DNA of 64,000 bases from Christensenellaceae bacterium (lineage in GTDB: Bacteria; Bacillota; Clostridia; Christensenellales; UBA1242): positions 5,463 through 69,462 of the forward strand of contig JAISKJ010000001.1 of the NCBI GenBank assembly GCA_031260975.1, written 5' to 3'. Under the pieces are notes generated by a model. It did not search any database and was not told the DNA's origin. It saw nothing but the letters and a program-made list of their open reading frames with translations. Both the position numbers and the translations under genes were made by a program. Positions within the stretch are counted from its first letter, which is position 1. Each line of letters opens with the position of its first letter. Below are positions 3,937-61,293 of the stretch, one piece after another.

Positions 3937-5565
3937 TTATATTTCGCCGGATAAGGTAACATTTCCCTTGCTTGTGCTTTTTGTTATTACAATCTTTCCT
4001 ATATTATCATTTACTCTTGGGTCGTCCCAGATTGTATAGCCCACCCTATAAGAGTGTGCACCAGACACATAGTCAGGGTCGGATAATGATACCGGACTAA
4101 ACAAACCGTGTGAAGTGTTGGGATTGATTGTTACAGAAGTTGAGCACACCAGCATATATATGTCGCTGCCCACCTTTGAGATTAAATCTATATCATAGCC
4201 TCTGCCCGAAATGGTGCTGCCCTTAACGACATTAATAAACCTCAGTGTCATTTTCTTATCTTTGCCGCTCTCTCCCAAAACCGAAATGGTTACCTTACCT
4301 CTCATATTGTTGGCTTTTATTTCGCCTTCTTTAGTAGTTATGTTAAGCTCATAAGCCGGCGCTGTCTGTTCAAAGGTTATGTCAATTGTGCCGGTCACAG
4401 TGTTGGCCGAAACATTACCTTTTGCACTCCCTACCTTAATGCCGCCCGAAGTAGTGGTAATAATTAAATTTCCAACTGCCTTAGATATAGTCACCTCACC
4501 CTTTCCCGCCTCAATTTCGCTAAGAGCAGGTGTCGTAAGCTCTTCTATAGTATATTTTACTTTAGGCTCTTCACTGTCCATAGGCAGAGACAATATTGTG
4601 CCGTAAACCTTTTTTATATCAATCGTAACATTTGTCGAAAACACCTGCATACCAACCGGACTGCCTTCTGCGCCAAGCTGCCCCACTGTCACAAAGCCCG
4701 TTTTTGATATCACATTCAGGTTGCCGTTTATTATATCCGCCTTAAATCTGGGACCGCCTACGCCTGAGCTTGAAACAATTCTGACGTTTCCGTTTATTGT
4801 GCCGTTCTTTCGTGAGTTGCTTACATCAAACGCACCTGAATTTGTAGCAAACTCTATGCTGGCGTCTATGCTGTTTGTGGTCACCGAGCCTGCGGTGTGA
4901 GCATAATTTTTAAAGCTTGCCGTTCCGCTGTCGGTTTTTAGTATATATCTGTCAAACTTAGGATAATTTATAGTTACATTGCTGCCGCCGCCTTCTATCT
5001 TTGCCATAAAGAGCTTGGTTTCATTTATCGCAAAGCCGCCAACCTCACCCACAAAATCTATCTGACCGCTCTGCGTCTGCACCGAATACAATTTTGGTGT
5101 CATAATTTCAGGCACATATAAAGTAATAGCGTTTTGCTTGGGGAATACCCATCCCTCAGGCTCTTCAAACACCACCATAAGAGTGTTTACGTTATTATAT
5201 GCTCCGCCCGCGTTGTCATTAAACGACCACTGCACAACTTCTGCACTATATGACACTTTAGCACGGTTTACATCCACAAAACCCGAAACGCCTTCTTTAT
5301 AAGAAACAATCAGTTTATCATTTATTTTGTTTGGTTCAATGCTGACTGACATACGGTTGGTTTTTATAAATATAGCATCAACATTTAATATATTTGTTTC
5401 GTCATAAGCAAACTCATGAGACTTATCCAGCTTTATATATCTTACGCCGAATATATTGCTGTTTGGCACAGTCATCAAAACAACGCCGCAGACTAAAACC
5501 GCAGTAATACAAACTCCGATTATAATTCCAAGATACATAAAAAATCTGCCAATAGTCTTTTTCAT
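3937..5565 (-). CDS. membrane-anchored protein with repetitive beta-strand (DUF4097/adhesin-like) body
   Basis: N-terminal TM segment (FFMYLGIIIGVCITAVLVCGVVLM), then Gly/Asn/Thr/Val-rich repeats. GAGGTGG lies before ATG 5565. Confidence 0.65.
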   Translation of the reverse strand: MKKTIGRFFMYLGIIIGVCITAVLVCGVVLMTVPNSNIFGVRYIKLDKSHEFAYDETNILNVDAIFIKTNRMSVSIEPNKINDKLIVSYKEGVSGFVDVNRAKVSYSAEVVQWSFNDNAGGAYNNVNTLMVVFEEPEGWVFPKQNAITLYVPEIMTPKLYSVQTQSGQIDFVGEVGGFAINETKLFMAKIEGGGSNVTINYPKFDRYILKTDSGTASFKNYAHTAGSVTTNSIDASIEFATNSGAFDVSNSRKNGTINGNVRIVSSSGVGGPRFKADIINGNLNVISKTGFVTVGQLGAEGSPVGMQVFSTNVTIDIKKVYGTILSLPMDSEEPKVKYTIEELTTPALSEIEAGKGEVTISKAVGNLIITTTSGGIKVGSAKGNVSANTVTGTIDITFEQTAPAYELNITTKEGEIKANNMRGKVTISVLGESGKDKKMTLRFINVVKGSTISGRGYDIDLISKVGSDIYMLVCSTSVTINPNTSHGLFSPVSLSDPDYVSGAHSYRVGYTIWDDPRVNDNIGKIVITKSTSKGNVTLSGEI

Positions 5566-5659
5566 GTCCACCTCGTTTAAAGTATACAATATTTATCAGC
5601 TTTAGTCAAGAAAGTGTTTTGAATAAAAAACAAGCCCTCATAAGATAAAAATTGTAAAT

Positions 5660-5688: not shown

Positions 5689-6768
5689 TTATGTCATTCC
5701 CATTTCTGGCTCTTTAATAGGATTACTTTCTGAAACAACTTTCCATCCCATCGCTTCAGCTTCAGATGACAACTTAAAACTCATTTTTATCCCGTTCTCT
5801 TCCCGTGGGTTTTCAGGCTCAACTTGGGCCTTGGGCTGATGCTCAGTCTCTAAAACTCTTTCCTTTTCATATTGCTCCATAGTCATGCCTGCAAGCCTCC
5901 GTTCTTCCTGACTGAGTCCTCCTCCTTCATCTACATATCTGATCGACTGCTCATATCCTTCTATATTCATGTTTTGTGCGGCTGTGCGCTCACTTTCGGG
6001 AATTTTAAAAAGTTTAGCAAGTTCCCTTTTATCACACTCATAACCATACAAACTTATAAGACAACCCAACGAACTCTCCGGTTCATTAAAATACAGATGT
6101 TTAAAATCTTCTATTTGCCACTGCTGCGCAACTGTACGTTTCTCTCTGGGAATCTTTTCAAGTTCTGCAACCTCCTTAGCCAACCAATCAGGAGCTTTTT
6201 CCATAGGCTCAGCAGTTTTCTTATTAAATTCAACAATTTCCTGATCTAGTTTAGCACTTTGCTTATCTAACTCTAGCATTTCCTTAATAAACGGACGGGG
6301 TTTAATTCCTCCCTCAAATATCTTTCTAATTTCTGAGGTTGATATTTTTTTCTCAAACTCCCTTTCCTCATCGGGCGTCGGCTCCGGCTCGCCTTTTTTA
6401 TGCTCCTCTGCCGCGTTTTTTAAAAATGTTTCGTGATTTGGGTTTACTGTCACCTGCGACATAGGCTCTTTGTTATTAATCATGCTTAAAATACGATTAT
6501 AAAGTTTTCTGCCTTTACTCACAGCCTCAACACCCCCTACTCCCCCTTTCTGCTTTACAGTTTTCAAAATTGCACTAGCAACATCAACTCCTACTAAAAG
6601 GTCAGGACCAATTGGGTCAATACTGTTTGTCTTAGCCTTATCAAAAGCCATCTCTAAAATCTTTTCAGCTTCATCCACATCCTTAGTCGGGTCAGTTCTG
6701 ATAATAAGCATTATCACCTTATTGCGCAATCTTATAAGGTCTTCCCACCGATATCCCAAAATACTCAT
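5689..6768 (-). CDS. hypothetical protein with an internal duplicated KIPxxxRTxAQ motif
   Basis: 359-aa ORF with GGAGAG before the ATG and its own promoter and terminator. No family recognised. Confidence 0.7.
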   Translation of the reverse strand: MSILGYRWEDLIRLRNKVIMLIIRTDPTKDVDEAEKILEMAFDKAKTNSIDPIGPDLLVGVDVASAILKTVKQKGGVGGVEAVSKGRKLYNRILSMINNKEPMSQVTVNPNHETFLKNAAEEHKKGEPEPTPDEEREFEKKISTSEIRKIFEGGIKPRPFIKEMLELDKQSAKLDQEIVEFNKKTAEPMEKAPDWLAKEVAELEKIPREKRTVAQQWQIEDFKHLYFNEPESSLGCLISLYGYECDKRELAKLFKIPESERTAAQNMNIEGYEQSIRYVDEGGGLSQEERRLAGMTMEQYEKERVLETEHQPKAQVEPENPREENGIKMSFKLSSEAEAMGWKVVSESNPIKEPEMGMT

Positions 6769-6794: not shown

Positions 6795-6826
6795 AGTATA
6801 GCATACTGCCCCCCCCCCCATGTCAA
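6795..6826 (-). promoter_or_regulatory. promoter with a G11 homopolymer in the spacer (drives 5689..6768)
   Basis: On the minus strand: TTGACA (6821-6826), t, a G-run (plus-strand C-run about 6809-6819), cag, then TATGCTATACT (6795-6805). Confidence 0.5.
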
Positions 6827-12273: not shown

Positions 12274-13017
12274 AAAATCTCCTTCGATTTGTTCTTTCTG
12301 TTTTTCAAGCTTCATCTTTGCAAGCTCTTCTTTGGTCGGCAGCGGCTTGGTGACATTTACCGCAATTTGATACCTGCTGTCGGTAGTGTATAATATCTCC
12401 TTGCAATACTTTTCTATTCGCTTTATAAAGTCCTCATAATATTGTAAAGTGGTCTCTCCCGAAATGAGCCTTATCTGCAAAAACTCGGTGGTGTTCTTTC
12501 GGTTGGTTTGATAATTTTTGACCTTAAATATTTCGCCGTTAAGTTCGGCCTTAAACCCGCCCGGCCCAAATACTTTATATGTTTCTCTTGGTATATCAAT
12601 GGTGAGCGCCACTTTCATCTGCTCAAACAACTTGTCAGGGTCAAACTTAAGGGCGTTGGTATACATTGAATTGAGTGCATTATTCAAAAAAAAGTAGTGC
12701 TTTGAAAGTGGGTCTTTTGTAGCCACTTTCTGCTCACGCTCATGCTTTCGTAGAGTGTCCGCGTATATAAACTCGGGCGACACAACACTGCGCTTAAGCT
12801 TTATTTCGCTTTTGGCGCCATATATGCGTTTTCGCAGAATAAGGTTGTTTTCGGCCAAAATTTTCTTTTCACTGTCATAATAAACATCTATTATCTTAGA
12901 CCTAGACGGGCCCTCCACCGTATAGGTAGAGAGGTTTTTTATTACTCCTATAAGACGCTTTACCGTCTTTTTGTCAAAAACACGATATCTGCGCTGCGTT
13001 TGTGTAATTTTTAGCAT
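12271..13017 (-). CDS. CYTH-like domain protein (triphosphate tunnel family)
   Basis: The pattern IDVYYDSEKKILAENNLILRKRI...EIKLKR resembles CYTH beta-strand motifs. Assigned by eye only. Confidence 0.5.
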   Translation of the reverse strand: MLKITQTQRRYRVFDKKTVKRLIGVIKNLSTYTVEGPSRSKIIDVYYDSEKKILAENNLILRKRIYGAKSEIKLKRSVVSPEFIYADTLRKHEREQKVATKDPLSKHYFFLNNALNSMYTNALKFDPDKLFEQMKVALTIDIPRETYKVFGPGGFKAELNGEIFKVKNYQTNRKNTTEFLQIRLISGETTLQYYEDFIKRIEKYCKEILYTTDSRYQIAVNVTKPLPTKEELAKMKLEKQKEQIEGDF

Positions 13018-17130: not shown

Positions 17131-17528
17131 TCTTTTTCTCCCAACCTCAAAATCTCTTTAAGTCGCTCGCTTTGGCCACTCACAAACAAATACCCGAGCA
17201 ACGCTTCATAGGCCGTTGATTTCATATATTCACTCAAACTCGCCTTTTTGCTGGGGGCGTTAACTTTGGTGTTGCGCGCACGCCTGACCAAATCCTGTTC
17301 ACGTTCGGTCAAAAATCCTTCAAGCTTATCAAGAACCTCACTCTGAGCGGTAGCCTTAACCTTAAGCACACTTTGCTTGTGAAGGCTTCCGCTTTTGGCG
17401 GTAGAGCCTATAAACACACATGATTTTATAAACAAACCATAAACTGCGTCCCCCACAAAGGCCAGGCTTTGCGGGTTCAGCATAAAAGCATCCCTTTCTT
17501 CAAGCGTCTTTTTCAAAAATATGTCCAT
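17127..17528 (-). CDS. mrnC: mini-ribonuclease III
   Basis: LAFVGDAVYGLFIK and AYEALLGYL, size 133 aa, plus synteny with rlmB and sigH. Confidence 0.85.
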   Translation of the reverse strand: MDIFLKKTLEERDAFMLNPQSLAFVGDAVYGLFIKSCVFIGSTAKSGSLHKQSVLKVKATAQSEVLDKLEGFLTEREQDLVRRARNTKVNAPSKKASLSEYMKSTAYEALLGYLFVSGQSERLKEILRLGEKE

Positions 17529-17664
17529 GCCCTATTGTAGCACAAGAGCCGGCGCAAAGCAAATGCTTTGCGCTGACCGCTATTTAATCCGCCCATGTGT
17601 TTATGTAATTAATTTGAATGAAAAAGCGAGACTCTCGCCTCGCCAAATGACAAATTGTTTATGC

Positions 17665-17943
17665 TCAAAAAAGATATGGATACAACAGAATAATACAAGC
17701 GATGTAGATAGGCAACAAAATACAGAATGAAATCAAATAGGCCTTAAATGACTTTTGCATTGCCGCAAGCTGCTGCTCGGGTGTGCGCTGATTGCCGGCA
17801 TTCTTAGGACGTGCGTTCCATTGCCCGGTCATAGTCCCCACCACTGTCTTTTGTTTTTCAGATAACTGCTCAAGTGTCTTTTTTACATACGGCGCATACA
17901 TAATAATATAAACAAGCATCACAACAAGTATAACTTCTAACAT
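17665..17943 (-). CDS. small two-TM membrane protein
   Basis: 92-aa ORF with a strong RBS (GGAGGAGG) and its own promoter. Confidence 0.6.
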   Translation of the reverse strand: MLEVILVVMLVYIIMYAPYVKKTLEQLSEKQKTVVGTMTGQWNARPKNAGNQRTPEQQLAAMQKSFKAYLISFCILLPIYIACIILLYPYLF

Positions 17944-17969: not shown

Positions 17970-17999
17970 ATTATACCCCCCCCCCGTCGATTTTGTCAA
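17970..17999 (-). promoter_or_regulatory. consensus sigma-A promoter with a G10 homopolymer in the spacer (drives 17665..17943)
   Basis: On the minus strand: TTGACA (17994-17999), aaatcgac, G-run (plus-strand C-run about 17976-17985), TATAAT (17970-17975). The spacer is about 18 nt. Confidence 0.6.
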
Positions 18000-18040: not shown

Positions 18041-19924
18041 TCAAAACGTATCCGCCATAAAAAACTCTTTGAATTCCTGATTGGTTTCAAGCAGCTCTTC
18101 AAACTTACCTTTAGCCACTACCCTGCCGCCATTTACAAAATATATCAGGTCACAAGTCTTAACTGTAGAAAGCCTGTGCGCCACAACAATAATAGTGTGC
18201 TTGCCCGACAACATCTTTATGCTTTCCTTTATATCATTTTGCGAAAGGTTGTCTAGGCTGCTTGTGCTCTCATCAAACAAAATATATTTGCTGCCCTTCA
18301 AAAATGCTCTGGCTATACTAAGCCTTTGTCTCTGACCTCCGCTCAGCATAACTCCGCCCTCACCCACTTTAGTTTCAAGCCGCTTTGGCAGAGTGTTTAC
18401 ATAGTCAAGAAAACTTGCCGATTTCAAAGCTTCAAGCATCTCATTCTCGACAGCGTCGGGTTTGACCATTGCTAGGTTTTGTTTAATGGTTGCGTCAAAG
18501 ATATACGAGCTTTGATTTACAAGTGCGATATTTTTTCGCAGACTGTCCTTTGTCATGGTCTTAATGTCAATTCCGCCAAGCAATACCTGCCCCTCATCAG
18601 CCTCATAAAGCTTTGCAATCAGGTTGAGTATAGTCGTTTTTCCGCCGCCGCTCTTGCCCACAATACCAATGGTCTGATAAGGCTCAACCTTAAAACTACA
18701 TTCACTCAAAACAGGTGTTATGTTGATATCCCTCGTAGTTGCACGTTCCCTTTTTATAGCATTTCCGTCATCATCATAAAGCTCGTCATTTATGCGCTCG
18801 GCAATAGTCTTATAGCTAAAGCCTACGTCCTTAAATTCTATGCTGGGTTCACCTATTATAGCATCCGCATCCCCAAACTTTTCGTCAGGAAAAATCATTT
18901 CATCATACAATTCATTTATTCGTTCGGTCGAAGTTTTATAATCCGTCGACGCTTCACCGAGCATATTTATACGGTTGCTTATCGACCAGAAAATGGATTC
19001 ATTAATCACAATAAACAGCAGCACTCCCACTGACATTCCATAATCCTTCGTGAGGAATATCGCAAGCAAAATAACCGAAAGCAGACCTATGTCAATCAAA
19101 AAGTTTGTAATCAAACCTGAAGTGGCTGTCCATCTCATACGCTTGTATGTGCGGTTTTGCATTGTGTTGATTTTTGGCACAACCACACAACGTACCTCTT
19201 CATCTATATTGAGCGTCTTTATATCTCTTTCACCCTTAACTGTTTCGGTCTGAGCACTTGCCAGAATATCTCTCGATTTTTTAAGCGAGCGCTGAAGCTT
19301 CTTTCGTCTCTTTGCCATAAAGAATCTCACAACGGCCACAATTGAAGTAATAACAAGACACGCAAGTCCTATCCAAATATTTAGCATACACATATACGCC
19401 ACAATCATTATGTCATATAGCAGATATGTGCCCTGTGTCGATATAGTTATAAACTGATCTATTGCAGTCTGCTGCTCACTGCCCATACGTGAAATAAATC
19501 TTCCGGTTGAGTTTTCCTGAAAGGCTCTCGAACTCTTCTGCAAAACAAGATTGAACACATCCTTCCTTGCCGTTCCAACCATTCTCCTGGTGAATATTGC
19601 AAGCAACCAGTCACTAAAATAACTCATAATATCTGCGGCAAAATTTGCACCCACAACCCCAACAAAATACCACATAGCTATTTCAAAATTAAGAAGAGTT
19701 ATTTGTTCCAAAAATATCGCAAACAACGCAGCACGCGCAAGCGCCACAACGTTTGTAAGAACCATAATAATAATGTAGGCAATCAAAGCTCCCTTAGTAA
19801 GTTTGGCGTACTTAAAAACACTAAACTTATCCTTAAGTTTAATGTTCTGCAAGTCTTCTTTTACGACATACGGCTTCGGCAGTTCTTTTACAATTTTTTC
19901 TGCGTCCCCGTCCTTGCGTTTCAT
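18041..19924 (-). CDS. ABC transporter, fused permease/ATP-binding protein (type I exporter)
   Basis: Six-TM N-terminal half, Walker A GKSGGGKTT, signature LSGGQRQR and Walker B ILFDE. The start is set at MKRKDGD, preceded by AAGGAGGAG. Confidence 0.9.
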   Translation of the reverse strand: MKRKDGDAEKIVKELPKPYVVKEDLQNIKLKDKFSVFKYAKLTKGALIAYIIIMVLTNVVALARAALFAIFLEQITLLNFEIAMWYFVGVVGANFAADIMSYFSDWLLAIFTRRMVGTARKDVFNLVLQKSSRAFQENSTGRFISRMGSEQQTAIDQFITISTQGTYLLYDIMIVAYMCMLNIWIGLACLVITSIVAVVRFFMAKRRKKLQRSLKKSRDILASAQTETVKGERDIKTLNIDEEVRCVVVPKINTMQNRTYKRMRWTATSGLITNFLIDIGLLSVILLAIFLTKDYGMSVGVLLFIVINESIFWSISNRINMLGEASTDYKTSTERINELYDEMIFPDEKFGDADAIIGEPSIEFKDVGFSYKTIAERINDELYDDDGNAIKRERATTRDINITPVLSECSFKVEPYQTIGIVGKSGGGKTTILNLIAKLYEADEGQVLLGGIDIKTMTKDSLRKNIALVNQSSYIFDATIKQNLAMVKPDAVENEMLEALKSASFLDYVNTLPKRLETKVGEGGVMLSGGQRQRLSIARAFLKGSKYILFDESTSSLDNLSQNDIKESIKMLSGKHTIIVVAHRLSTVKTCDLIYFVNGGRVVAKGKFEELLETNQEFKEFFMADTF

Positions 19925-20061
19925 ACGCTCCTCCTTTTGTGCTAAATGCTTCTTAAAAAGACCAAACACGCCCACAAAAACATGGGTCTTATTCACAATA
20001 TGTCCACGCCCTTGATTTATCCTCTAAAAAACAAAAAAAGCGGGGCCATCAGAACAATTTC

Positions 20062-20090
20062 ATTATACCTCAACTCTCCGCCGCCGTCAA
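20062..20090 (-). promoter_or_regulatory. sigma-A promoter upstream of the ABC exporter
   Basis: On the minus strand: TTGACG (20085-20090), 17 nt, TATAAT (20062-20067). Confidence 0.5.
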
Positions 20091-20436
20091 CGGGTATTTG
20101 AAAAATATACCATAAAAATCCCCGCCTTTTTCCTTTTATTACTCTAAAGCGGCATATATTTGCTGCTCAATATTTAGATACCAAAAAAACAACCATGTTC
20201 TCCTTTTATGTGCTGTGATACATACCACTTTTACTCTTTACTTTCTCCCTGCTCAGGTGTCCACCTTGGAGTGCAAACAGGAATAAAAACACCCTTGGTT
20301 TTTTCGGTCCAAAAATACCATTCATCTTTGTCAATCAGCACGGCATCGTTTTTTTATTTTAAGCCCCCCCCTCTATACTTAAATATTTTGAAAGTATCTT
20401 CATCAAACTTTTGATAAGTACTCTCTGCTCTACACT

Positions 20437-28486: not shown

Positions 28487-28537
28487 GTTTCTCCTTTATT
28501 TGCTAAAATTATACCTTCATCCTCCCCCATCTGTCAA

Positions 28538-35743: not shown

Positions 35744-35921
35744 ATTTTCCCCCAAATCCACTGCCAAGCAGCGATTTTATATTCCGTCCAAAAATTCTTC
35801 CCAATCAAGCCCGCATAATAATTATATCACCGCCGCTGCCGCCTTGTCAACAAAGTGGACAGCGCAACAAAAAAATACTAAGGATGTCTTAGTATTTTTT
35901 CTATATCTTTACTATCTTTTA

Positions 35922-38097: not shown

Positions 38098-41000
38098 TTA
38101 ATGGCTGAATTCTATATATGTTATACGTTTGTTAACATCGTTCAGAGTATGCATAAAGCGGCTTGCAATAAGCCCCGAAACATTAGAGAACAAACTTGAA
38201 TCAAATGTAACCGCTGAGCTTAGGCGTATTTCTATGCCGCTGATTAAGTTAAAGTTTGGAAGCGCTGCATAAGCATTAATCAATGCAGTAAGCTCAACCT
38301 TGCTTTCAATATAGTGATCAAGCCCCACCTGCCCTGTATAGTTTGCATAATAGTTGTGACTTATCGTGGTATTGTTTCCTATCTTATATGTTGCAGTGTG
38401 CAGCGTCATTTCGGTATCGTTAGATAAGAAGTATGCGTGATTTGCAATTGCAGTACTGCCTCCGTTGTCTCTGATAACACCCCATGTTGCATCCACCCAA
38501 TAATAGTTGCCGCCTATCCCAACTTCATTCCATGCATGATTGCCACCGCTTGCTGTTCCGTTTACCTTGGTGGCGTATATACCTTCAATACGGCAAAGTA
38601 GCACAAACGCCTTGGCAATTCCGTCACAAACCGCAATCTGACTGTCTAGGTCAAGGAATATACTTTCAAGATAAAACACACTGAAGTTTCCCCATGAACT
38701 AACTGTGAAGTTTCCTATGCTCTGCATAAAGCCATACAGCACAATGTCATAACTCACTCTGTTGACCAAATATCTATATATATTAAGCGTCTTTTCATAA
38801 TCAGTCAGACTGTTACTGTTGTTAATCTGTTCAAGTACAATCCTTGCGTTCTGGTATACAGCTTCGGCAACGCTCCCCGCCTCAATATTTGGTCTTGTGC
38901 CATACTGCACTGCCATAAATAGTTGCTCGGTGTTATAAACCGGCAACACAGGAGTTACGCTGTCAATTGCAAAGACTCTGCTGGTGGGCAATGCCGTCTC
39001 ATAGCCCGCATTAAACGTTGTTACTTTAGTAGCCTGAAAGTGTGTGTCTTTCCATGCATCCAACCCGCTATACCAAGCAGGTTTGGGGCTTATCCCCAAA
39101 TAATAATCTTCAATCCCCGCCGTAGTAATTATCCTGTCTTTGTCAAGATAATATACAAATCCGGTTACTATATATACCCGGCTTATGCCTGTAGTGTTAA
39201 CTGTAAGTGAATAAGTCAGTCCGTCATACTCGGGATAGCTGCTTCTGAAAATGTTTACTATTGTGTTATTGAGCGTGCCGCCCGACCATGGGTTTGCAAG
39301 ATAAAATCTCAGTGTTGTCTTTTGATATAAAATAGCATGGTGAATAAGCAGTTCAAGTTCTTGTTCATCTTCTATATAATAGTCTTTAATCTCACCATTC
39401 ATAACATACTTGGCCCGCACAAAATGCTGAACGTCGGTCATAGAAAACATATAAATCTCAGTCTGGTCAAAAATCTTATCAAGTTCTGTGTGATGTCCGC
39501 CTATGTCAAGTGCGTCATTATAAACAATAACCCTCACTTGATAGGTGCCGTCGGCCCACAAATACTGTGTCAAATCCAAACTTGTTTTGGGGCCGTTATA
39601 AACTTCTATACCGTCCACAAATACCGCCATGCCCGTGCTCGTCCCCGTTTGAATTTCCATAAAATCAGTGGTGGTGCTGTCAATATTCTGCACACTCATA
39701 TAAACCGGCGGGTCATAGAAATTTGAACTCAAAACTATTGTTACATTAAGCGTATAAGTTTCTATAAAAATTTCATCAACTCCGTCGCCGTCAAGGTCAT
39801 AAGAGATAAATACCGTCATCAGCACCAGCGCTATTGTATAGTCTGACCCCGAAAAAGCCGTTTGAAGAGCAACTAGGTTTGTAACAGTTAGAGTGTATGT
39901 GTCGTCACTGTCGTCATAGGGTGTGCTGTTGTCGTTGTGAACAATTGACACATTGCTCAAAATCGCAGAGGTATTATTTATTGGGTCAAGCTCAAACGTA
40001 ACATGCTGAATGTCGTTGTCAGTGGTTCCATCATTGTCAAAGTCTACACTCGGGTCATGGTCACCCGTAGAATCTAGATATATCGCATATCTGTTTTGCT
40101 GAGACTGAAGATAGGAATTTATGTCATTTAACACAACCTGCAACAAGTCCGGCCCGTTGCTTTGAACTCCAAGATTATTCTCAAGAATAAACTCAATGGG
40201 CGCAAACGTAATAGTCTTGGTTATATCAGCAGCTCCGCCGCCCGTAAAGTATATAGTCATATTAACGTCAACACTGAACGAAACAGTCATTTCATAAGCT
40301 TTTAACTGAATTATGTTGTTAACAACTCTATGCTGCACTCTGTCAGCATCAACTCCCGTTATGCTGTTTACAACAACACCAACAACTGTCTGACCGTGCT
40401 TGCCATTAAAGCTATCCAGACTATACCATGTGTTGTCGCTTGGCAGTGTAACACTTGCGCTTTGGTTAATCGTCACGTCCCCGCTGCCCCAAACCGAATT
40501 CAAAACAACTTTCATTTCTATAGTATAAGTTATCACATACTTTACCTCAGCCGCGTCATAAACCGGAACATGAATAAGCACCGGCAAAATAATGTAGTTT
40601 ACGTTGGGATTTGCCAACAGAATTGAGGCATAGTTTATAGCAAGCGTATAGTTGTCTCCGCTCAAATTAATTTGAGCGTCGCCCGGACCAAGGTTGGTGC
40701 CCGTTCGGTCAACCTCAAACGGGTTAGTTCCGCTAAGGTCAGCATACAAAATTGCCTTTTCAATATAATCAGCAAGCAAATCGTCATGGCCCAAAGTGTC
40801 AAATCCGTAGGTCTGGGTTATGATGAGGGGGTTAAGCAATCTTGTTTGGTCTCCAAGCCCCATCTCATCGTCTAAAAACCAAAAGGTATCAAGATTTGGC
40901 TCAACGGTTATAACTTTGGTAATTATTACTTCAGCCCCGTCAACAAAGTGAAGAGTTACAACAAGCGTCACTTGATATTCTTCAGTAGCTTCAAAGCCTC

Positions 41001-44000
41001 TCACCTTCAAAATGTTGCCGGTTGTAGTATAATCCACCCTACCGGCATAAGTGCCCTGTTTTGATACGTTTATATAACTAAGCCTTGCGCTCTGTCCGTG
41101 AAGGTCAATATCAAGCGTATTATAAACTCCGTCGCCCGTAATTGCTATGTCAGAGTTACTCAAAAGAGTTATATCTTGTTCACTCCACAGGTTATTTAAA
41201 ACTATGACGCATGGCAAGCTGACTTCTTTTGCGCTCAGCACGGCCCCGCCGCCAAGGTTAACTTCTGCAATAACAGTCCTGACATAAATCTTTATCTCGT
41301 TAGTTCCCGTAAAGTTGTTTATCAAAAGCATAGGGTCACCGCTGTTATATACGATTTTAACAAGCCCCACAAAACCTGCATCAACAAGGCCTTGCAGGTT
41401 ATTAAACCCTGCACTAATGAGATTTTGTGCACTGACAGATAAGGCAGCAACAACGCCTGCATCAACAAGATTCTGTGCACCAATAACTCCGATATCAAAA
41501 AGGGTCTGCACATTTATGAGAGTTTGCAGATTTATGCTGCCGGCAATAAGGAAGCCTTCGTCAATAAGGCGCTGCTGAGTGGTAAGCCCCTTATTAATAA
41601 GAGTTTGCGCCGTAACAGTTGTAGAACTGATAACGCCCTTATTAACAAGACTTAGCGCATTAATAATTCCGACATCTATAAGCTCCTGCACATCTATAAG
41701 CTGCTGTATATCAATAAGCCCTGCAGCAGTAAGACTTCCTGCGTCAAGCTGATAGGTAATCTCGCTAGGACTAACACCGGTAAGTCCGTTAAACATTTCA
41801 AATACTGTATTAAGGTCAATTCCGCCAAGGTCGGGCGCGTCAATCACGGCCTTGCCGGTAAATACTCCGTCCGCTTCATGCTGATAAGCCCCATCTATGT
41901 CAAGGCTGAAAGGTGTTGTAAAGAGTATATTGTGATAAGCAATACTGAAGCTGCTGAGCCCTATTTTTAATCCCACAACCACAGTTGTGTTAGATGGGAT
42001 ATCCTGCAGAACTTCTATCATAAGATTTCCATCCAGCGCAAACACTCCGCCACCTGATATGCTTAAGTTGATAAGTCTGCTGAGTGTTACGTTGCTATAC
42101 CCGCCCTGAACAACATTGTTCATCATAACAGGTGTGCCATTGGCGGCTGTAATATTAAAGTTTATTCGGTTAAACAGGTTCACCACAGCGCTTTCTGACC
42201 CGACATATTCTGTTGCTGTATCTGTTTCAGAAGCGGTTATCTCAAAGCCGTAAACCGTGAAAGTATATGAAGCCACAGCCTCAGTGTAAACCTGCCATGA
42301 ATAAGTAGTTGTTCCGGTATACACAAATCGTCCGTTTCCGCTGGCGGGCCTCACAGTAACAACAATTTCATATCCGTTTACGTTATAAGGAACATTGCCT
42401 ATCACCAGAATATATCTGCTGCCGTCAAAAATCACATTAGCTATCGAGGTATCAACATTCAGTTCAAATATCGGGGTCATACCATCCACAACGCTTCCGC
42501 CAAGCTCGCTATAAAACCTGTGTTCAAGAGCCGTTAGGTCCACAACAGTTCCATTGAATGTTGTGGGTAAGCCTTCAACCGCTAAATTCCACACAATGCT
42601 GCCGCCTGAGTTCATATTGGCAGCCCAAATGCTCTTTGAACTGCTGCCCTCAGACACACTGCCGTTATAAAAGTCCAGCACCGCTGCTTTTATAACTCTA
42701 TCCTCAACGGTCATAAAATAATCTTTAATAGCTGTATATTCACTTCCATACTGAGCACCTACTGCAATTTTAAATATCGCCGGAACAGAAGTTGTAGTGT
42801 TACCGTTGTTATATTCAATGGTGTCAATATCTCCTATATCAATTTTATAGCTATATCCTATCAGAGTACCCGTGGCAGGATTTCCGTTGTCATAAACCTC
42901 TGTCCAGCTGTTAATGTCAAGGCTTAACTTGCCGCCGTTTTGCAAAATTCCATAAGCCGAACTATAGCTTACGTTCAGGCTCATAAAACCCGTTCCAACC
43001 ATTTGTGTCAAAAGACCAATCGGAGTACTTGTATTTTCAACCGACAGCACCAGATAATATGTTTCACTCTCAGCTACCGTAAGAGGCAGATATACCGTAG
43101 GATCTCCTGCGCCGCTGTCAATCTGATCAAGCTTGACACCTGCTCCGTCGGTCAAATAAATATTAAGCTGATCAATCTTGTTAGTCACCACTACACTCGT
43201 TTCGGCTGACTTATATTGAATATAATCACCGTTTATGTCTCTTATGTTGGCACCCTGTCTGGTTGTTGCCACAATCACAGCATAAACCCTAAACTCACCG
43301 TAACCCTTTGCACTGAAAGTAGCATCGGTAGCATCAATCAGTCCTGTTGAGCTGTTAAACTGTTCGTTTGGAACATACAGCGTAATCCATCTGTTGGTGT
43401 TTACAAAGTCTTTATCCTTAACCTTAAGGTAGGGGTAAGTATTATATACTATTGATGGTGCAACACCGACGCCCTCATAGAACTTAACGTTGCGCATAAT
43501 TTCGGGGTTACCCAAAACATGGTTAACGCTGTCGGCAACTGAAGACTGTCCGCCCGAAGTGGTTATGGTAATGTCATTGCCATATTGTGCCTTAACCCAA
43601 TCGGTAAGGTTGCTTGCACTGTCAGCCCATGTAAATGTAATACTTACATTGCTGGGGTTGGTCAGCCCCTCACACACTGCCCTAATACGTCCGCTCGCCC
43701 CTACCAGCGCACTCGTTCCGATTACGCCGCCGGTTGTGTTGTCAGTGTTAATATAATGCCACGAAACATTAGCAAAGCCAACACCGCCCTGCATAACCTG
43801 AGGGCCGATGCCGTCGGTCTTAACAAAGTCAAACGTAGTTTTATATGTCCCTGCAGCTGACGGAATATAGTCAATGTCAGCCGGATTTAGATAGAACATA
43901 AGATTTGAGAATGTAATAATTCCGCTGCCGTCATCCTGAATAGTTACATACTTCTGACCGGCCTGAGAGCCACCCAACGACAGCTGCTCGGGGTTTTGGG

Positions 44001-45348
44001 TTATATCCTTGCTGCCGTCAATCACAAAGTTATTCATGCCCTTATAGTTTATATTCACTATGTCTATGCCCGGCAGTCTGGGTTTTATGTTCACAGTTAT
44101 AGTCTTTTCAATAAGCGTCCCTTCAAAGGTAGTAAAGCTTGCCTTAAGCGTCACGTTAAGTCCAACGGGGCTCAGCATAGCCGCATCAAAATTAATCGGT
44201 TCCACACGCCACTTGGTGCCTGTCCCCGAGGTGCCCGCAACTTTGGTTATGTTAAGATATGTGGTATCCTGCTCGGTGATTGTCACTCCGCCCAAAAACT
44301 TATCTAGCACACTTGCGTCATAGTTGTTGTCAACAGGAATGAGCCTGAGACCAAAGTTTGGCAAAGAGTTGTCGGAGATATAAGCCAGAAAATCCGTTTC
44401 TTCATAAAGGTAAAGCGGCAAAACACTGCCTGTTGCTTCAAGGTCGTCAACTCTCACATCCTGAACCGCAAATTCTTCGATGGAAGTCATTACAAAAAGG
44501 TCAGTTGAACGCTCTCTTAAAAGACCAAAAATATCAGCATTTGAATAAGTGCTGTAATAATCGTTATCCTTAAAGTTTTTAAACATACAGGCCTGAACAT
44601 AAAAATATCTCTGTTCATCGCGCACCTGCAAAACTGTATTGCTTGTCACCTGCGTGCTGTTTATGGCATTTATCCAAGGTTGGCCGTTGATGCTAAACCC
44701 TGCCACATTGCTACCTGTGTTAAGAAGCATGCTTCCTGCGTTGTCTTCAAGCAAAAAATAGTATATCGTTTTGTTTCGGTCAAAGGGACTAACTCCTACA
44801 TCTAAATGACCGGGGTTTCGCGCGTTTGACGGAAGCACTTCAATGCGACTGTTAAAAAAGCCGTCAAAATTCACCCATGAGTTGAGAGAAAAGATATTGT
44901 TGTCAAAATCATCAAACCCTAACTCATTGGCAGTAGTGTCCACATAAATTACCAATTCCTGAGATTGCACAAGCTGATTCTCGGTATAGGCCGTAATTCG
45001 GGCCACTCCGCCGTGGTTATTCCCGTTTTGGTCTTTGGTTGCAAAAACCTGAAAGTGCCTGCCAACTTCCGCCGTAGGCGGCACCTGCAAAACCTCAGGC
45101 TTGTCTACCCTGAGCATAATTTTGGTTTCAGTCACATCCGCCGTAGTTGTAATAACAAGCAAGTCAAACCCGCCTGTTATGATTGTGCCGCTGCTTGTCG
45201 TAAAACTCAAATCGTGCGGAGCTACAACCGGTTTATTGTTGCCAAACAACAACACTCCGCCAAAAATCAAGGCAAACGCACCTACAACGCAAGCAGCCAC
45301 AATTCCCACAACCTTAAGAACTTTTTTGGCGCTTAATTTTACTGCCAT
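38098..45348 (-). CDS. giant (about 2416 aa) membrane-anchored surface protein with a C-terminal transglutaminase-like module
   Basis: Uninterrupted 7.3-kb ORF with AAAGGAGGAG before ATG 45348. N-terminal TM VVGIVAACVVGAFALIFGGVLLF. C-terminal IAVCDGIAKAFVLLCRIEGIYATKVNG...NHAWNEVG...WVDATWG. Confidence 0.9.
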   Translation of the reverse strand: MAVKLSAKKVLKVVGIVAACVVGAFALIFGGVLLFGNNKPVVAPHDLSFTTSSGTIITGGFDLLVITTTADVTETKIMLRVDKPEVLQVPPTAEVGRHFQVFATKDQNGNNHGGVARITAYTENQLVQSQELVIYVDTTANELGFDDFDNNIFSLNSWVNFDGFFNSRIEVLPSNARNPGHLDVGVSPFDRNKTIYYFLLEDNAGSMLLNTGSNVAGFSINGQPWINAINSTQVTSNTVLQVRDEQRYFYVQACMFKNFKDNDYYSTYSNADIFGLLRERSTDLFVMTSIEEFAVQDVRVDDLEATGSVLPLYLYEETDFLAYISDNSLPNFGLRLIPVDNNYDASVLDKFLGGVTITEQDTTYLNITKVAGTSGTGTKWRVEPINFDAAMLSPVGLNVTLKASFTTFEGTLIEKTITVNIKPRLPGIDIVNINYKGMNNFVIDGSKDITQNPEQLSLGGSQAGQKYVTIQDDGSGIITFSNLMFYLNPADIDYIPSAAGTYKTTFDFVKTDGIGPQVMQGGVGFANVSWHYINTDNTTGGVIGTSALVGASGRIRAVCEGLTNPSNVSITFTWADSASNLTDWVKAQYGNDITITTSGGQSSVADSVNHVLGNPEIMRNVKFYEGVGVAPSIVYNTYPYLKVKDKDFVNTNRWITLYVPNEQFNSSTGLIDATDATFSAKGYGEFRVYAVIVATTRQGANIRDINGDYIQYKSAETSVVVTNKIDQLNIYLTDGAGVKLDQIDSGAGDPTVYLPLTVAESETYYLVLSVENTSTPIGLLTQMVGTGFMSLNVSYSSAYGILQNGGKLSLDINSWTEVYDNGNPATGTLIGYSYKIDIGDIDTIEYNNGNTTTSVPAIFKIAVGAQYGSEYTAIKDYFMTVEDRVIKAAVLDFYNGSVSEGSSSKSIWAANMNSGGSIVWNLAVEGLPTTFNGTVVDLTALEHRFYSELGGSVVDGMTPIFELNVDTSIANVIFDGSRYILVIGNVPYNVNGYEIVVTVRPASGNGRFVYTGTTTYSWQVYTEAVASYTFTVYGFEITASETDTATEYVGSESAVVNLFNRINFNITAANGTPVMMNNVVQGGYSNVTLSRLINLSISGGGVFALDGNLMIEVLQDIPSNTTVVVGLKIGLSSFSIAYHNILFTTPFSLDIDGAYQHEADGVFTGKAVIDAPDLGGIDLNTVFEMFNGLTGVSPSEITYQLDAGSLTAAGLIDIQQLIDVQELIDVGIINALSLVNKGVISSTTVTAQTLINKGLTTQQRLIDEGFLIAGSINLQTLINVQTLFDIGVIGAQNLVDAGVVAALSVSAQNLISAGFNNLQGLVDAGFVGLVKIVYNSGDPMLLINNFTGTNEIKIYVRTVIAEVNLGGGAVLSAKEVSLPCVIVLNNLWSEQDITLLSNSDIAITGDGVYNTLDIDLHGQSARLSYINVSKQGTYAGRVDYTTTGNILKVRGFEATEEYQVTLVVTLHFVDGAEVIITKVITVEPNLDTFWFLDDEMGLGDQTRLLNPLIITQTYGFDTLGHDDLLADYIEKAILYADLSGTNPFEVDRTGTNLGPGDAQINLSGDNYTLAINYASILLANPNVNYIILPVLIHVPVYDAAEVKYVITYTIEMKVVLNSVWGSGDVTINQSASVTLPSDNTWYSLDSFNGKHGQTVVGVVVNSITGVDADRVQHRVVNNIIQLKAYEMTVSFSVDVNMTIYFTGGGAADITKTITFAPIEFILENNLGVQSNGPDLLQVVLNDINSYLQSQQNRYAIYLDSTGDHDPSVDFDNDGTTDNDIQHVTFELDPINNTSAILSNVSIVHNDNSTPYDDSDDTYTLTVTNLVALQTAFSGSDYTIALVLMTVFISYDLDGDGVDEIFIETYTLNVTIVLSSNFYDPPVYMSVQNIDSTTTDFMEIQTGTSTGMAVFVDGIEVYNGPKTSLDLTQYLWADGTYQVRVIVYNDALDIGGHHTELDKIFDQTEIYMFSMTDVQHFVRAKYVMNGEIKDYYIEDEQELELLIHHAILYQKTTLRFYLANPWSGGTLNNTIVNIFRSSYPEYDGLTYSLTVNTTGISRVYIVTGFVYYLDKDRIITTAGIEDYYLGISPKPAWYSGLDAWKDTHFQATKVTTFNAGYETALPTSRVFAIDSVTPVLPVYNTEQLFMAVQYGTRPNIEAGSVAEAVYQNARIVLEQINNSNSLTDYEKTLNIYRYLVNRVSYDIVLYGFMQSIGNFTVSSWGNFSVFYLESIFLDLDSQIAVCDGIAKAFVLLCRIEGIYATKVNGTASGGNHAWNEVGIGGNYYWVDATWGVIRDNGGSTAIANHAYFLSNDTEMTLHTATYKIGNNTTISHNYYANYTGQVGLDHYIESKVELTALINAYAALPNFNLISGIEIRLSSAVTFDSSLFSNVSGLIASRFMHTLNDVNKRITYIEFSH

Positions 45349-45430
45349 AACTCCTCCTTTGTGTAGTATGAGCAAGTTGCCTACCCGTTATTATAAAACG
45401 ATAAAATGCCATATAACTATATACAATATA

Positions 45431-47790: not shown

Positions 47791-48564
47791 TTATCTTGAT
47801 CTAAAACTGAAATTATAAACATCCCCGCCGCTGAGCGTAAGAGTAATTGCATTTCCTTCAAACGTAATTACATTGTCACCTTGGTCGGTGAAGTTTGCCG
47901 TCACATATCTATAACCCAAACCAAACAAGTTATAATCAATTTCGCCGGCAAGAGATACAATTTCAGAGCTGCCGGTCTTTAGGGCAAGAATACCGCCCAG
48001 AGTTGAAAAGCTTATGCCTAAAGCATTTGTAGTGTCAACATCGCTTGACTGCAGCTGATAAATACTTGCGCCCGACAAAAGATACTCCTCTTTTATGCAG
48101 TCAGTAGTAGTCAGCAGATAATGGGCAAATCCCTGCGACAAATCAATGCCGCTGTCTATGATCGTTTGCTGGTCACTTTCGGTGATTTTACGATAAACAG
48201 TTTTATATTGCTCAGCAAAACCCTCTGTATCCTCAAAGGTAGCATTTTCAAACACAATCCTGCTTGTTAGCTGCCCTCCGGCAAAATTAAACTGTTCGCG
48301 ATGCCATGTGGCGCCAAGATTACTATACTCTATTTTGGCGCTTTGATATTTTTGAGTGCTATAATCTTCAAGTATACTCTGATAGGCCTCTCTTGCAGCT
48401 TCTCCTTCAAGAGCTATGTCTTTATTAAGACGGTTTAGCGAAAATACCACAAACGGGATAAGTATGGCTAAAATCAATACAACCGCAACCATAGTAAGAA
48501 TTGTGTTTTTGTATGCATCCAACACTATGGGCTTAAGTGGCCGCTCTTCTTTCTGCTTTTTCAT
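47791..48564 (-). CDS. single-pass membrane protein, unknown extracytoplasmic domain
   Basis: 257 aa with TM ILTMVAVVLILAILIPFVVF. Its start overlaps the stop of the upstream gene by 4 nt. Confidence 0.75.
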   Translation of the reverse strand: MKKQKEERPLKPIVLDAYKNTILTMVAVVLILAILIPFVVFSLNRLNKDIALEGEAAREAYQSILEDYSTQKYQSAKIEYSNLGATWHREQFNFAGGQLTSRIVFENATFEDTEGFAEQYKTVYRKITESDQQTIIDSGIDLSQGFAHYLLTTTDCIKEEYLLSGASIYQLQSSDVDTTNALGISFSTLGGILALKTGSSEIVSLAGEIDYNLFGLGYRYVTANFTDQGDNVITFEGNAITLTLSGGDVYNFSFRSR

Positions 48565-51500
48565 TTGCCGCCTCCCTTGTTTGGTTTACCTTTGCTGTTA
48601 ATCTCCTTTTCTATCCTGTCAAGAATATCATCTATGGTGTCTTTTTCAGCTGTCTCTTCTTCTATAACTTCTTTTATGACCTCAGCCGCGCTCTGCTCAG
48701 CCTCTTTTGATTTTGAAACTTTTGCCGCCTTTTCTTTGACCTTTTTGGGTTCAGCCTCACTCTTGGTTTCGGCTTTCTTATCTTCTTTGGGCTCTTTGGG
48801 TTTAGCGGGCTTTTTCTTTTTTGCTTCAGCTTTTTTATTGCTTTCTGTTTCAGCGGGCAATTCCTCCGCTTTTTTACTGTCTTCAACCTGTGTCAAAGTT
48901 GTTTCCGATTGTGTTGATGCTGTTTCCAAAACTGCGGCATTGTTTAAATCTTCTGCTTTGTTTTCCTTCGGTGCTTCCAGACTATCTTCTGCCGCACCAA
49001 TATCCTGAGTTTCAGTGGCAACACTTCCGCCGCCCAAAACAACTGTCTCTTCATTATCCTGAGTTCCAGACTGTGCCGTCACTTGAGCCTGAGCTTCTTC
49101 CTGCGGCCAATATTCAGTTTCCGCATTTTCCATTGGTTGTTGAGGCTGCACAAAATTCTGTGTTTGCGGCTCCCATGTTTGTTGCGGCTGCCACTCCTCA
49201 GTCTGCCGGGGCAGTTCAGCCGGCCCTACATACGCGTTAAAATTATCATCAATATCTGTTTGCGACGTTTCTTGAACTGCTGCATCGCCAACTGCAGCCT
49301 CACGGCTGCGGGCTAAATCCTCACGCGCCTGCGTAAAGCTTTGTTTGGTTTTGTTTTCTTCCAAAATTTTATTCAACGCTTCGGGGCCTGACGCTCCGTG
49401 AGTTCCGTGCAGGTTACCCTCCTTGTCAAACGACAGCCACAGCCGCGGATCCTCTTCACCGCCGTCCGTTGGCTCAAAACATTTATACAGTCTTATATAT
49501 ATAGTAAGCTTATAGGCAGCAAGTGCACCGACAACAGTCAATATTATAAGCACACCATACTCATGGGCAAACCATGTGTTTTGATAGTCACCGAATATAA
49601 GACCCAGCAATGTTGCAAACGCCGCTATATATAAACCGGCTCCTATGCCCAGATTTGTTATGCCGTGCCGTCTTATCGGCCTAAGTTCCTTGGCAGTATG
49701 CGGCTTTTCATCAAAACTCCCGCGGGCCAGCTTCTTATATAATAAGATATTAGAAATCTGCAGGCCCAAAATGCCGAGTATTACAATGCCCATCAACACT
49801 ATCAAAACATAATGCCCCAAAAGCATAGCCACGAAACCTGCAAACAGTTCGGCCAACCACCAAAGCTGAGCACTTGCAACACCTATCTGCTGCAAAACAT
49901 TATGACCGCTAATAGTCTGAATAATTCCGATAGCAACAAACAGTGCAAGAACTACCCAAAGTACTATGGTTATAATCGAGGTGATAAGCAAGGCATTTTT
50001 GGAGTAGTTGTTTTCCATCTGATAGCTGTTATGCCTTATGATTGCTCTCTTTTTTGAACCTACTTTGGCGCGCCTCGTCAATACCGCAATTAAAATACAT
50101 GAGAGTGCAAAGAAGAATTCTACAACACCAAGCACAATCATACCAAGCTCAAAGTCACCAAGGCTTAGGACCAACAAAGCCACAACCAGAGCTAATGAAA
50201 ATACTGCATATATAATGCTGTTTCGTCTTATATTCATAGCAAAACGTTTATCTACAATGTTTTGTGCCGCAAGCACCTTATATTGCATCACCGAAATATC
50301 TATCAAAAATGCTACAACCATAACAGCCAGCACAACTACCAGAATTGCTCTTATTATATCAATCTCAAACAAGGCAAATCCCATAAAGGTCTGCCCACCT
50401 GATCTAACCAGCGGCAAAAAGAGTGACAGAAGCAGCACAACCGAAAGACATGTTGCAATAGCAATAGGATTGTCATTTGTTGTATATATATTCTTTATAT
50501 ACTGCGGCTTGCCATTCGACCCTGCTGCTACAGCAGTTGCAGCTGCGGCTGCCTGAGCATCATGGCTCTGGCCCTCAAAACTGTTGAGGTCATAGCTTGC
50601 AACTTCCTTATTGGGTTGCGTGAGCACTTCAGTCTGAAGCGGCTCTGCCTCGGGCTGAGTTACTTCCGGCTGATATACACCTGCTTCTTCTGTTGATTTA
50701 TCAACAAACGCAACAGGTTCCTCATTAAACAAGCTGTGCTGCCCCACAATGGGAGTATTAAGCTCTTCTTCACTTTGCACCACACGGTTATCCTGATATA
50801 TAACCGTCCAACCTTCGGCGTTTGCAGGCTGACCCTCTGCTTGACCTATAGACTGCATTTCGGTCTGAACAGGCTGAGACATAAACTGCTCAGTCGTTTG
50901 AACCTGCGGACCTACAAAATTAAGCTGCTCCTGTATCGGCGCCGAAATTTTGTCAAAGTCGCTTTCCTTGTTTTCGGCAAGCATAGCGTCACCCCTTATA
51001 GTGCCGCTACTTGGCGTCATTGTGTCAAAATATTCACTAAGACTAGTACCGCCCCCAGCAGTAAGGTCTGTTCTGCCTCCGGTGTCAACATCAAAAGAGC
51101 CCGTTTGGTTTTTATCTTCATACGGAAGTGCGCTCTTAGACGGTGCTGTGTCCGAATTATAATCTATCTGCTTGCGCTCAGGCTTAAATAGATCAGGGTC
51201 TATGTTCATATCAGGCATATCATATGCCGTCATGTCATATTCATTGATACCTATGCGGCTTATGTCCTCGCTGGATATCACATCATCCTGATAATCCTCT
51301 TTGACGGGCGCATATTCCCGCTTGGCAGAAGTGCGATTTTCCAAGCTGCGGACAGCCTTTTGAGGCACAACAGTATTTTCCTCATCCTCCAAAACTGCCC
51401 GTCTGATTTTTTCATTTGTTACCACCTGCTCCCAAAGCGGCGATTGTGAATCGCGGACTTTTGACACTCTGGCTCGGCTCTTGGGCTTTTTGCTCACGCG

Positions 51501-61070: not shown

Positions 61071-61161
61071 GGAGAGGTACTCAAGAGGCTCAAGAGGATG
61101 CCCTGCTAAGGCATTAGTACGGGAAACCGTAGCGCGGGTTCAAATCCCGCCCTCTCCGCCA
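61071..61161 (+). tRNA. tRNA-Ser (anticodon GCU), CCA encoded
   Basis: Folded by hand. Acceptor GGAGAGG/CCTCTCC, anticodon stem ATGCC/GGCAT with loop CTGCTAA, long variable arm TACGG-gaaa-CCGTA, and T arm GCGGG-TTCAAAT-CCCGC. Confidence 0.95.
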
Positions 61162-61240: not shown

Positions 61241-61293
61241 GGTAGAAAAATTGGTAGAAATGCAAAATTTTTGGTAGAAAAGATTTTTCTACA
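61241..61293. repeat. three direct GGTAGAAA repeats plus one inverted copy (candidate integrase arm-type sites)
   Basis: GGTAGAAA at 61241-48, 61253-60 and 61273-80. The inverted TTTCTAC overlaps the int stop codon. Confidence 0.55.

Follow-up and report, generated by a model that had tools for sequence, protein, structure and literature searches.

A candidate slippage-tuned promoter with a ten-guanine run in its spacer, upstream of a putative small envelope protein gene in an uncultured clostridial bacterium

Gene context and promoter anatomy

The window, that is the whole 64-kb stretch of DNA that was analysed, carries between positions 17625 and 18041 (minus strand) a small gene for a 92-aa protein, situated downstream of an ABC transporter gene (Table 1). 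The transporter gene ends in an intrinsic terminator and a terminator-like hairpin follows the 92-aa ORF, so that the latter lies in an insulated, monocistronic-looking cassette and probably forms a transcription unit of its own. Ahead of its Shine-Dalgarno sequence is a promoter with perfect hexamers, which scores 12/12 in a consensus scan of the window and whose -10 box is 26 nt from the ATG. The 3′ ten bases of the spacer form an uninterrupted G run (G10) abutting the -10 hexamer, an arrangement of the spacer type, with a homopolymer of at least about 8 nt between the -35 and -10 hexamers of a sigma-70-type promoter. The initial annotation had described TTGACA, a G10-filled spacer, TATAAT, a ribosome-binding site and the 92-aa gene in this order directly after the ABC gene terminator, and had put the spacer at about 18 nt with counts possibly off by one; the order is exact on the minus strand, the run lies within the spacer as described, and the counts are exactly 18 nt and exactly G10.

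An invertible promoter of the Clostridioides difficile or Bacteroides type was also considered for this locus. This was ruled out as no inverted repeats flank positions 17970-17999; the only integrase gene of the window is found at a distance of 43 kb. A search of the window against Rfam returned a tRNA and no other RNA element.

Table 1. Features of the G10 promoter cassette and of the two other long G tracts in the window
Feature	Position	Strand	Basis or remark
ABC transporter gene	18041-19996	minus	upstream neighbour of the G10 promoter
Intrinsic terminator of the ABC gene, then U6	18038-18014	minus	11-bp GC-rich stem, -16.3 kcal/mol, z = -3.3
-35 hexamer TTGACA	17999-17994	minus	sequence; collinear TTGACA in homolog L223
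Spacer, exactly 18 nt (AAATCGAC + G10)	17993-17976	minus	sequence
G10 homopolymer, abutting the -10 hexamer	17985-17976	minus	sequence (C10 on the plus strand)
-10 hexamer TATAAT	17975-17970	minus	sequence
Shine-Dalgarno sequence GGAGGAGGG	17955-17947	minus	sequence
92-aa ORF, ATG at 17943	17665-17943	minus	two hydrophobic segments (N- and C-terminal)
Terminator-like hairpin and U5 after the 92-aa ORF	17644-17625	minus	-13.1 kcal/mol
Second G-tract promoter, TTGACA-T-G11-CAGTATGC-TATACT	6826-6795	minus	sequence; 11-12/12 class match
-35 hexamer of the second promoter	6826-6821	minus	sequence
G11 of the second promoter	6819-6809	minus	sequence (C11 on the plus strand)
-10 hexamer TATACT of the second promoter	6800-6795	minus	sequence
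359-aa gene downstream of the second promoter	5689-6768	minus	
550-aa membrane-anchored protein gene downstream of the second promoter	3937-5589	minus	
Third tract, G8	20364-20371	minus	C8 on the plus strand; no recognisable promoter

The 92-aa protein and its promoter in related loci

The 92-aa ORF appeared to be an orphan in a word-index search, which found the protein itself alone, but an exhaustive HMMER search of 1.84 billion representatives then identified a small family of 13 proteins including the query (E ≤ 1e-3). Its members are about 83-99 aa long, the best relative being 48% identical over the full length, and their alignment shows the motif MLE...RGK...LS.KQ...RT.E(E/Q)QL...QK between two hydrophobic segments. 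The existence of a family with a conserved motif shows the gene to be real. No Pfam family scored above cut-off for the protein, and the conserved hydrophobic N- and C-terminal segments suggest that the product is an envelope protein.

The closest homolog (L223, the relative with 48% identity) has a collinear promoter consisting of TTGACA, 17 nt (...AAAAGGGCA), TATTAT and then 27 nt with GGAGGAAGGG before the ATG, and this promoter is without a G run. A G/C run of six or more was likewise absent upstream of the gene in all seven homolog loci. The position of the promoter is thus common to the window and L223, and the unbroken G tract is a trait derived in this species. The sister species, whose ABC protein is 78% identical, does not have the 92-aa cassette and carries a 324-aa gene at this place.

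The G10 promoter itself is probably real, judging from its sequence and setting. The distance of 26 nt from -10 box to ATG recurs at the second G-tract promoter of the window and in a related mouse-gut Clostridia MAG (L036, described below). In addition, three of the four perfect promoters of the window, this one included, have 18-nt spacers; with perfect hexamers and the commonest spacer length, the assembled G10 state is predicted to be ON.

Rarity of long G/C runs

The window has a GC content of 40.8%, and the lengths of its G/C runs fall geometrically up to 5-6 nt. Just three runs of at least 8 nt are present over the 64 kb (Table 1), all of them intergenic and all with C on the plus strand, and thus G on the gene strand. 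Based on Markov simulation and geometric extrapolation, 0.28-0.55 runs of this length would be expected, while for runs of at least 10 nt two were observed against 0.013-0.02 expected, an excess of about 100-fold. This bears out the suggestion of the initial annotation that a 10-nt G/C run is very unusual in this genome, and the excess of long runs is one that extends over several loci, with three runs of at least 8 nt within the window itself.

For comparison, 80 loci from the nearest GTDB genomes (1.33 Mb in total) possess only two runs of at least 8 nt, the density in the window being about 30-fold higher. The genomes in question are MAGs of Christensenellales-like bacteria and of other Clostridia; RlmB identity in the GTDB scan did not exceed 61%, so the species is without a close reference genome.

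Two of the three tracts lie inside the spacers of promoters scoring 11-12/12. Arithmetic from the promoter scan shows such spacers to make up about 0.2% of the available positions, so the association between tract and spacer is not accidental. Both the promoter architecture and its non-random occurrence in the window can be regarded as solid results.

Spacers rich in G or in purines on the sense strand can also be found elsewhere in the window, at 20062-20090 (gcggcggagagttgagg), 28508-28537 (gatgggggaggatgaagg) and 35821-35850 (aggcggcagcggcggtga). Uninterrupted runs may arise from G-rich spacers of this kind.

The second and third tracts

The initial annotation had noted a second promoter of the same architecture at 6795-6826, and this holds with regard to the G run in its spacer. 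However, the spacer is 20 nt in length, the G11 tract adjoins the -35 box side (separated from it by a T) and is away from the -10 box, and TATG-c immediately before TATACT forms an extended -10; TRTG is the extended -10 motif of Gram-positive bacteria, which the sequence fits. The distance from -10 box to ATG is also 26 nt here. The two genes downstream encode proteins without recognised relatives in the searches performed, with no homolog for the 359-aa protein among 5.8 billion proteins in the word-index search, and no Pfam match for the 550-aa membrane-anchored protein. At G11, with its 20-nt spacer, this promoter is predicted to be in a low (weak) state, while G8-G9 would bring the spacer back to 17-18 nt.

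The third tract, G8, was examined as a promoter element and rejected as such, since no -35 match better than 3/6 is present and the homologous tract of the sister species is intragenic. It borders a stretch of about 110 nt with homology to the 3′ half of a 124-aa ORF of that species (L085 2814-3188), in which an in-frame G10 (L085 3017-3026) encodes Gly-Gly-Gly, so that the homologous tract is G8 in the window and G10 in the sister species. The window copy of the ORF (20230-20371, minus strand) differs from it in the common 3′ half mostly by synonymous changes. A TAA codon closes the reading frame of the window copy, whose 5′ half has given way to genes for an HTH protein and a 160-aa membrane protein; the G8 tract is therefore a relic at the 5′ edge of a small ORF. 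No within-species frame variants of this tract were seen between the window and one Logan assembly.

With tracts in promoters of the window and in an ORF of the sister species, poly-G in this lineage is found in promoter and coding sequence alike. The G10 locus seems to belong to a limited group of poly-G contingency loci in the organism.

Tract length in assemblies of the species

Only one other assembly of the species was found (Logan SRR14710919), and no difference in tract length was seen between it and the window, with G10, G11 and G8 in both; it should be mentioned that this assembly possibly derives from the same reads as the window. Exact-protein look-ups with the 92-aa, ABC, 359-aa and DnaB proteins each led to this one Logan sample, and a search of the metagenome contigs collection with the exact flanking DNA and a variable gap gave no match. 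Comparison of tract lengths in related genomes had been proposed as a check by the initial annotation; the tract is the same G10 in the only other assembly. Differences in length were seen in metagenome families with the same promoter design (see below).

The Logan contigs stop exactly at the G10 and G11 tracts, while G8 is read through; one contig spans from the second tract to G10. Such contig ends are an indirect sign of heterogeneity in that they fit assembly-graph tangles arising from differing tract lengths, and they also fit Illumina homopolymer errors or low coverage. At the second tract, the gene-side Logan contig begins with C-G11 (L083 1-12), in place of the T-G11 present in the window (6809-6820) and in the other Logan contig. 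This difference could reflect a minor variant, or else an error beside the tract.

The same promoter design in metagenomes

Metagenome contigs were scanned with the pattern TTGACA-N(0-12)-G9-N(0-12)-TATAAT, which was found at 120 loci or more. The matches listed comprise 121 sites in 91 families defined by their flanks, on contigs with GC contents of 26-66%, the human gut being the source of many. These loci are analogues, not orthologues, of the G10 locus. The typical layout among the matches listed is TTGACA, about 8-9 nt, and then G9-15 against TATAAT; the run abuts TATAAT in 56 of the 91 families listed versus about 10% expected, this being the same layout as that of the G10 promoter. Spacer lengths among the matches listed peak at 18 nt (34 sites) and 19 nt (27 sites), although the pattern itself favours 21. 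Spacers of 17 nt are under-represented among the matches listed.

Strongly hydrophobic N-termini resembling signal peptides or lipoboxes are encoded by 61 of 105 downstream ORFs among the matches listed, and many of these have LTGC, LAGC or LAAC. In IMG/VR, the version of the promoter with G on the sense strand was found 13 times and that with C three times. Rfam identified no RNA element in ten of the metagenome loci. With regard to the hosts, NCBIfam analysis of the neighbouring genes was not decisive, and the class is therefore not taken to consist of Firmicutes throughout.

Tract length varies within a number of the families among the matches listed. In families D and E, both 200-nt flanks are 98-100% identical and the tracts are G9/G9/G10 and G9 (three times)/G10, respectively. 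Families G (G9/G10) and H (G9/G11) have one flank that is 100% identical and another that is low in ungapped comparison. Among the other families, A ranges from G9 to G11 over eight contigs, B from G10 to G13, C has G11/12/15 and F has G10/G12. In all of these families, some of the length differences could stem from errors in the consensus of contigs with low coverage.

A C-run counterpart is present in the related mouse-gut Clostridia MAG (L036 16911-16975), where TTGACA-ACT-C10-ATGC-TATACT, with a 17-nt spacer and a sense-strand C run, is found 26 nt ahead of a gene for a 282-aa lipoprotein with a signal peptide ending in LVGC.

One further contig, L151, has at 12600-12632 an upstream half belonging to promoter family A and a downstream half belonging to family I, joined at G13. 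Either the contig is a chimera that was formed in assembly at the homopolymer, or a real recombination has swapped promoters at the tract.

Taken at the level of the class, these observations support selection for G-run promoters and polymorphism of their tract lengths, and for the G10 locus they provide evidence by analogy. A broader reading is put forward tentatively, and with somewhat less than even confidence, namely that gut anaerobes, Clostridia included, have a widespread, stereotyped and previously undescribed class of promoters with runs of 9-15 G, switched by slippage and mostly serving lipoprotein or surface genes, with the present lineage perhaps possessing a Campylobacter-like set of poly-G loci.

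Proposed function of the G10 tract

It appears rather probable that G10 is a hypermutable homopolymer in the spacer of a strong sigma-A (sigma-70-type) promoter, acting through slipped-strand mispairing as a dial on the 92-aa gene. For this locus we infer the transcription start, the relation of activity to tract length, and switching from the sequence and from comparison with other promoters. Slipped-strand mispairing during replication would add or remove G residues, and each change in length would shift both the spacing of the -35 and -10 hexamers and their rotation relative to each other. High activity would be expected at G9-G10 (17-18 nt), reduced activity at G8 or G11, and little activity at G7 or shorter and at G12 or longer; this prediction draws on the preference of promoters in the window for spacers of 17-18 nt. 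A population would then contain cells at differing levels of the envelope protein, under a graded, heritable and reversible "volume control".

The initial annotation had proposed a slipped-strand ON/OFF candidate. Of this, the slipped-strand component is retained as probable, while strict ON/OFF switching is replaced by a predicted graded dial, given the perfect hexamers and the 18-nt spacer. Hexamers of this quality may tolerate a change of one nucleotide, in which case the phenotypic effect would be small.

Two features of the class are left unexplained by slippage alone, these being the abutment of the run on the -10 box and the modal spacer of 18-19 nt where 17 nt is expected. Potentially, A-like, under-twisted poly(dG).poly(dC) may need about one extra bp to bring the hexamers into register, and a run ending at -13 would always supply a favourable G at -14.

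Alternative explanations

The most serious competitor to the slippage dial is that the promoter is functional while the G run is a fixed, G-rich spacer kept stable by mismatch repair and without a role in heterogeneity, which we regard as rather unlikely but deserving of weight. The occurrence of G10 in both assemblies would agree with this, as would the G-rich spacers of other strong promoters in the window (e.g., gatgggggaggatgaagg and gcggcggagagttgagg), the ...gaggggaggggg against the -10 box in homolog L228, and the fact that 18 nt is the commonest length among the perfect promoters of the window. Against a fixed spacer stand the about 100-fold over-representation of uninterrupted runs of at least 10 nt, the length polymorphism of the same design between near-identical metagenome strains, and contigs that break exactly at the two long tracts. 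The run could instead be a recognition or structural element, either the site of a regulator or a rigid, A-like poly(dG).poly(dC) segment, which acts by sequence and not by length. The stereotyped placement against the -10 box and the sense-strand preference for G point in this direction, given that slippage alone predicts neither. No candidate regulator was found, though, and the variation in tract length within families of the class (9 to 15) is a poor fit with a defined binding site; a structural role, for its part, is compatible with length switching. We consider a purely sequence-based role improbable.

Less credit still can be given to a chance match, in which the hexamers are coincidental or belong to an inactive promoter, the 92-aa gene is transcribed from elsewhere and the tract is neutral. 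The promoter scan as a whole returned 13 consensus-like sites in the window versus 13.5 in shuffled sequence, but this promoter scores 12/12 directly between a terminator and an RBS-ATG, has a collinear counterpart in L223 and shares its distance to the ATG with the second tract and L036, which makes coincidence very improbable. Hardly credible is an artefact of sequencing or assembly, such as the poly-G of two-colour chemistry or a mis-join, despite the Logan contigs that end at the tracts and the resemblance of L151 to a chimera. Both flanks are unique and unbroken in two assemblies that agree in tract length, the tract is just 10 nt in length and sits exactly between two promoter hexamers, and the same design occurs with conserved flanks in many independent samples.

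Comparison with known phase-variable systems

Homopolymer promoters are textbook examples of phase variation in Neisseria, Treponema, Bordetella and Mycoplasma. Mycoplasma hyorhinis vlp, with poly-A in the spacer, and Bordetella fim, with poly-C, have promoter homopolymers before lipoprotein and fimbrial genes, respectively; in the case of fim, the upstream element is an activator site and not a -35 hexamer. Like these, the metagenome G-run class is found, among the matches listed, mostly before lipoprotein-like genes, while the nucleotide (A or C as opposed to G) and the lineages differ.

In Neisseria meningitidis porA, poly-G lies between -35 and -10 and changes in its length modulate transcription of an envelope protein gene, as outlined in PMC7864442. 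Both porA and the G10 promoter have a G tract in a sigma-70-type spacer, where it sets the spacing of the hexamers. However, porA belongs to a Gram-negative pathogen and its variation has been shown experimentally, whereas the G10 promoter, with perfect hexamers and an 18-nt spacer, is known from the sequence of an uncultured Clostridium. Treponema pallidum tp0126 also has poly-G between -35 and -10, with the best activity at 17-nt spacing, and tp0126, tprL and tprE, G and J have promoter poly-G of 7-11 G varying within isolates ahead of surface-protein genes (PMC7864442). In that spirochaete data on tract length and reporters exist, while the G10 locus is described from its DNA and has a 92-aa protein with two transmembrane segments downstream. 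The G10 locus is a probable example of the porA, tp0126 and vlp type of promoter in kind.

With regard to the genome-wide pattern, Campylobacter jejuni NCTC11168 is described as possessing 29 loci with G/C tracts of at least 7 nt and a modal length of 9. It resembles the window in being low in GC with an excess of G/C runs of at least 8 nt. In C. jejuni the tracts are mostly intragenic with measured switching rates, whereas the window has three tracts in 64 kb, two of them in promoter spacers; the tracts of the window lie between genes and that of the sister species in an ORF.

The genes for GerA, GerAC and SigH are encoded in the window, in line with the earlier labelling of the organism as a spore-former, which it plausibly is. 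Homopolymer switches in which a reversible indel controls a phenotype are known in spore-forming Firmicutes, namely Bacillus subtilis swrA and Paenibacillus glucanolyticus flgG. These switches work by frameshift in intragenic poly-A (A7-A8), in contrast to the poly-G in a promoter spacer at the G10 locus. For Clostridia, as for gut commensals at large, the known mode of phase variation is DNA inversion. No description of promoter-spacer poly-G in Clostridia was found in the literature searched, which agrees with the initial annotation, to which no description for a spore-forming Firmicute was known, bearing in mind that the absence of a match is not proof.

If the tract does switch, an uncultured spore-forming gut Clostridium would be using the same trick as Neisseria, Treponema, Bordetella and Mycoplasma, and the metagenome survey suggests that many gut bacteria use G-run promoters, mainly for lipoproteins. 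Were this true, slipped-strand promoters would rank beside invertible promoters as a major source of surface variation in gut Firmicutes, and conclusions drawn from metagenomes on strain-level surface heterogeneity, phage sensitivity and immune recognition would be affected. On a practical note, short-read assemblies break at G tracts, where chimeric joins can arise as well. The survey also provides new facts of promoter geometry that can be tested, these being the run against the -10 box, the modal spacer of 18-19 nt and the strand bias for G over C.

Other features of the window

Upstream of mrnC (17483-17600, minus strand) there is a near-perfect palindrome, GCGCAAAGCA-TT-TGCTTTGCGC, together with TGcTACAAT, an extended -10. 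Rather than 17528, the start of mrnC is probably the internal ATG at 17483; the protein then has 118 aa, in agreement with the Logan contig.

Also present are two giant ORFs, one of 2425 aa (38098-45375) and one of 1191 aa (48561-52136), the latter with no Pfam match. As a 487-aa protein encoded near them has a Big_3 domain, they may be surface proteins. Finally, a tRNA gene (61071-61158) adjoins a tyrosine-integrase gene (61289-62533, minus strand), and an integrated element may begin here at the end of the window.
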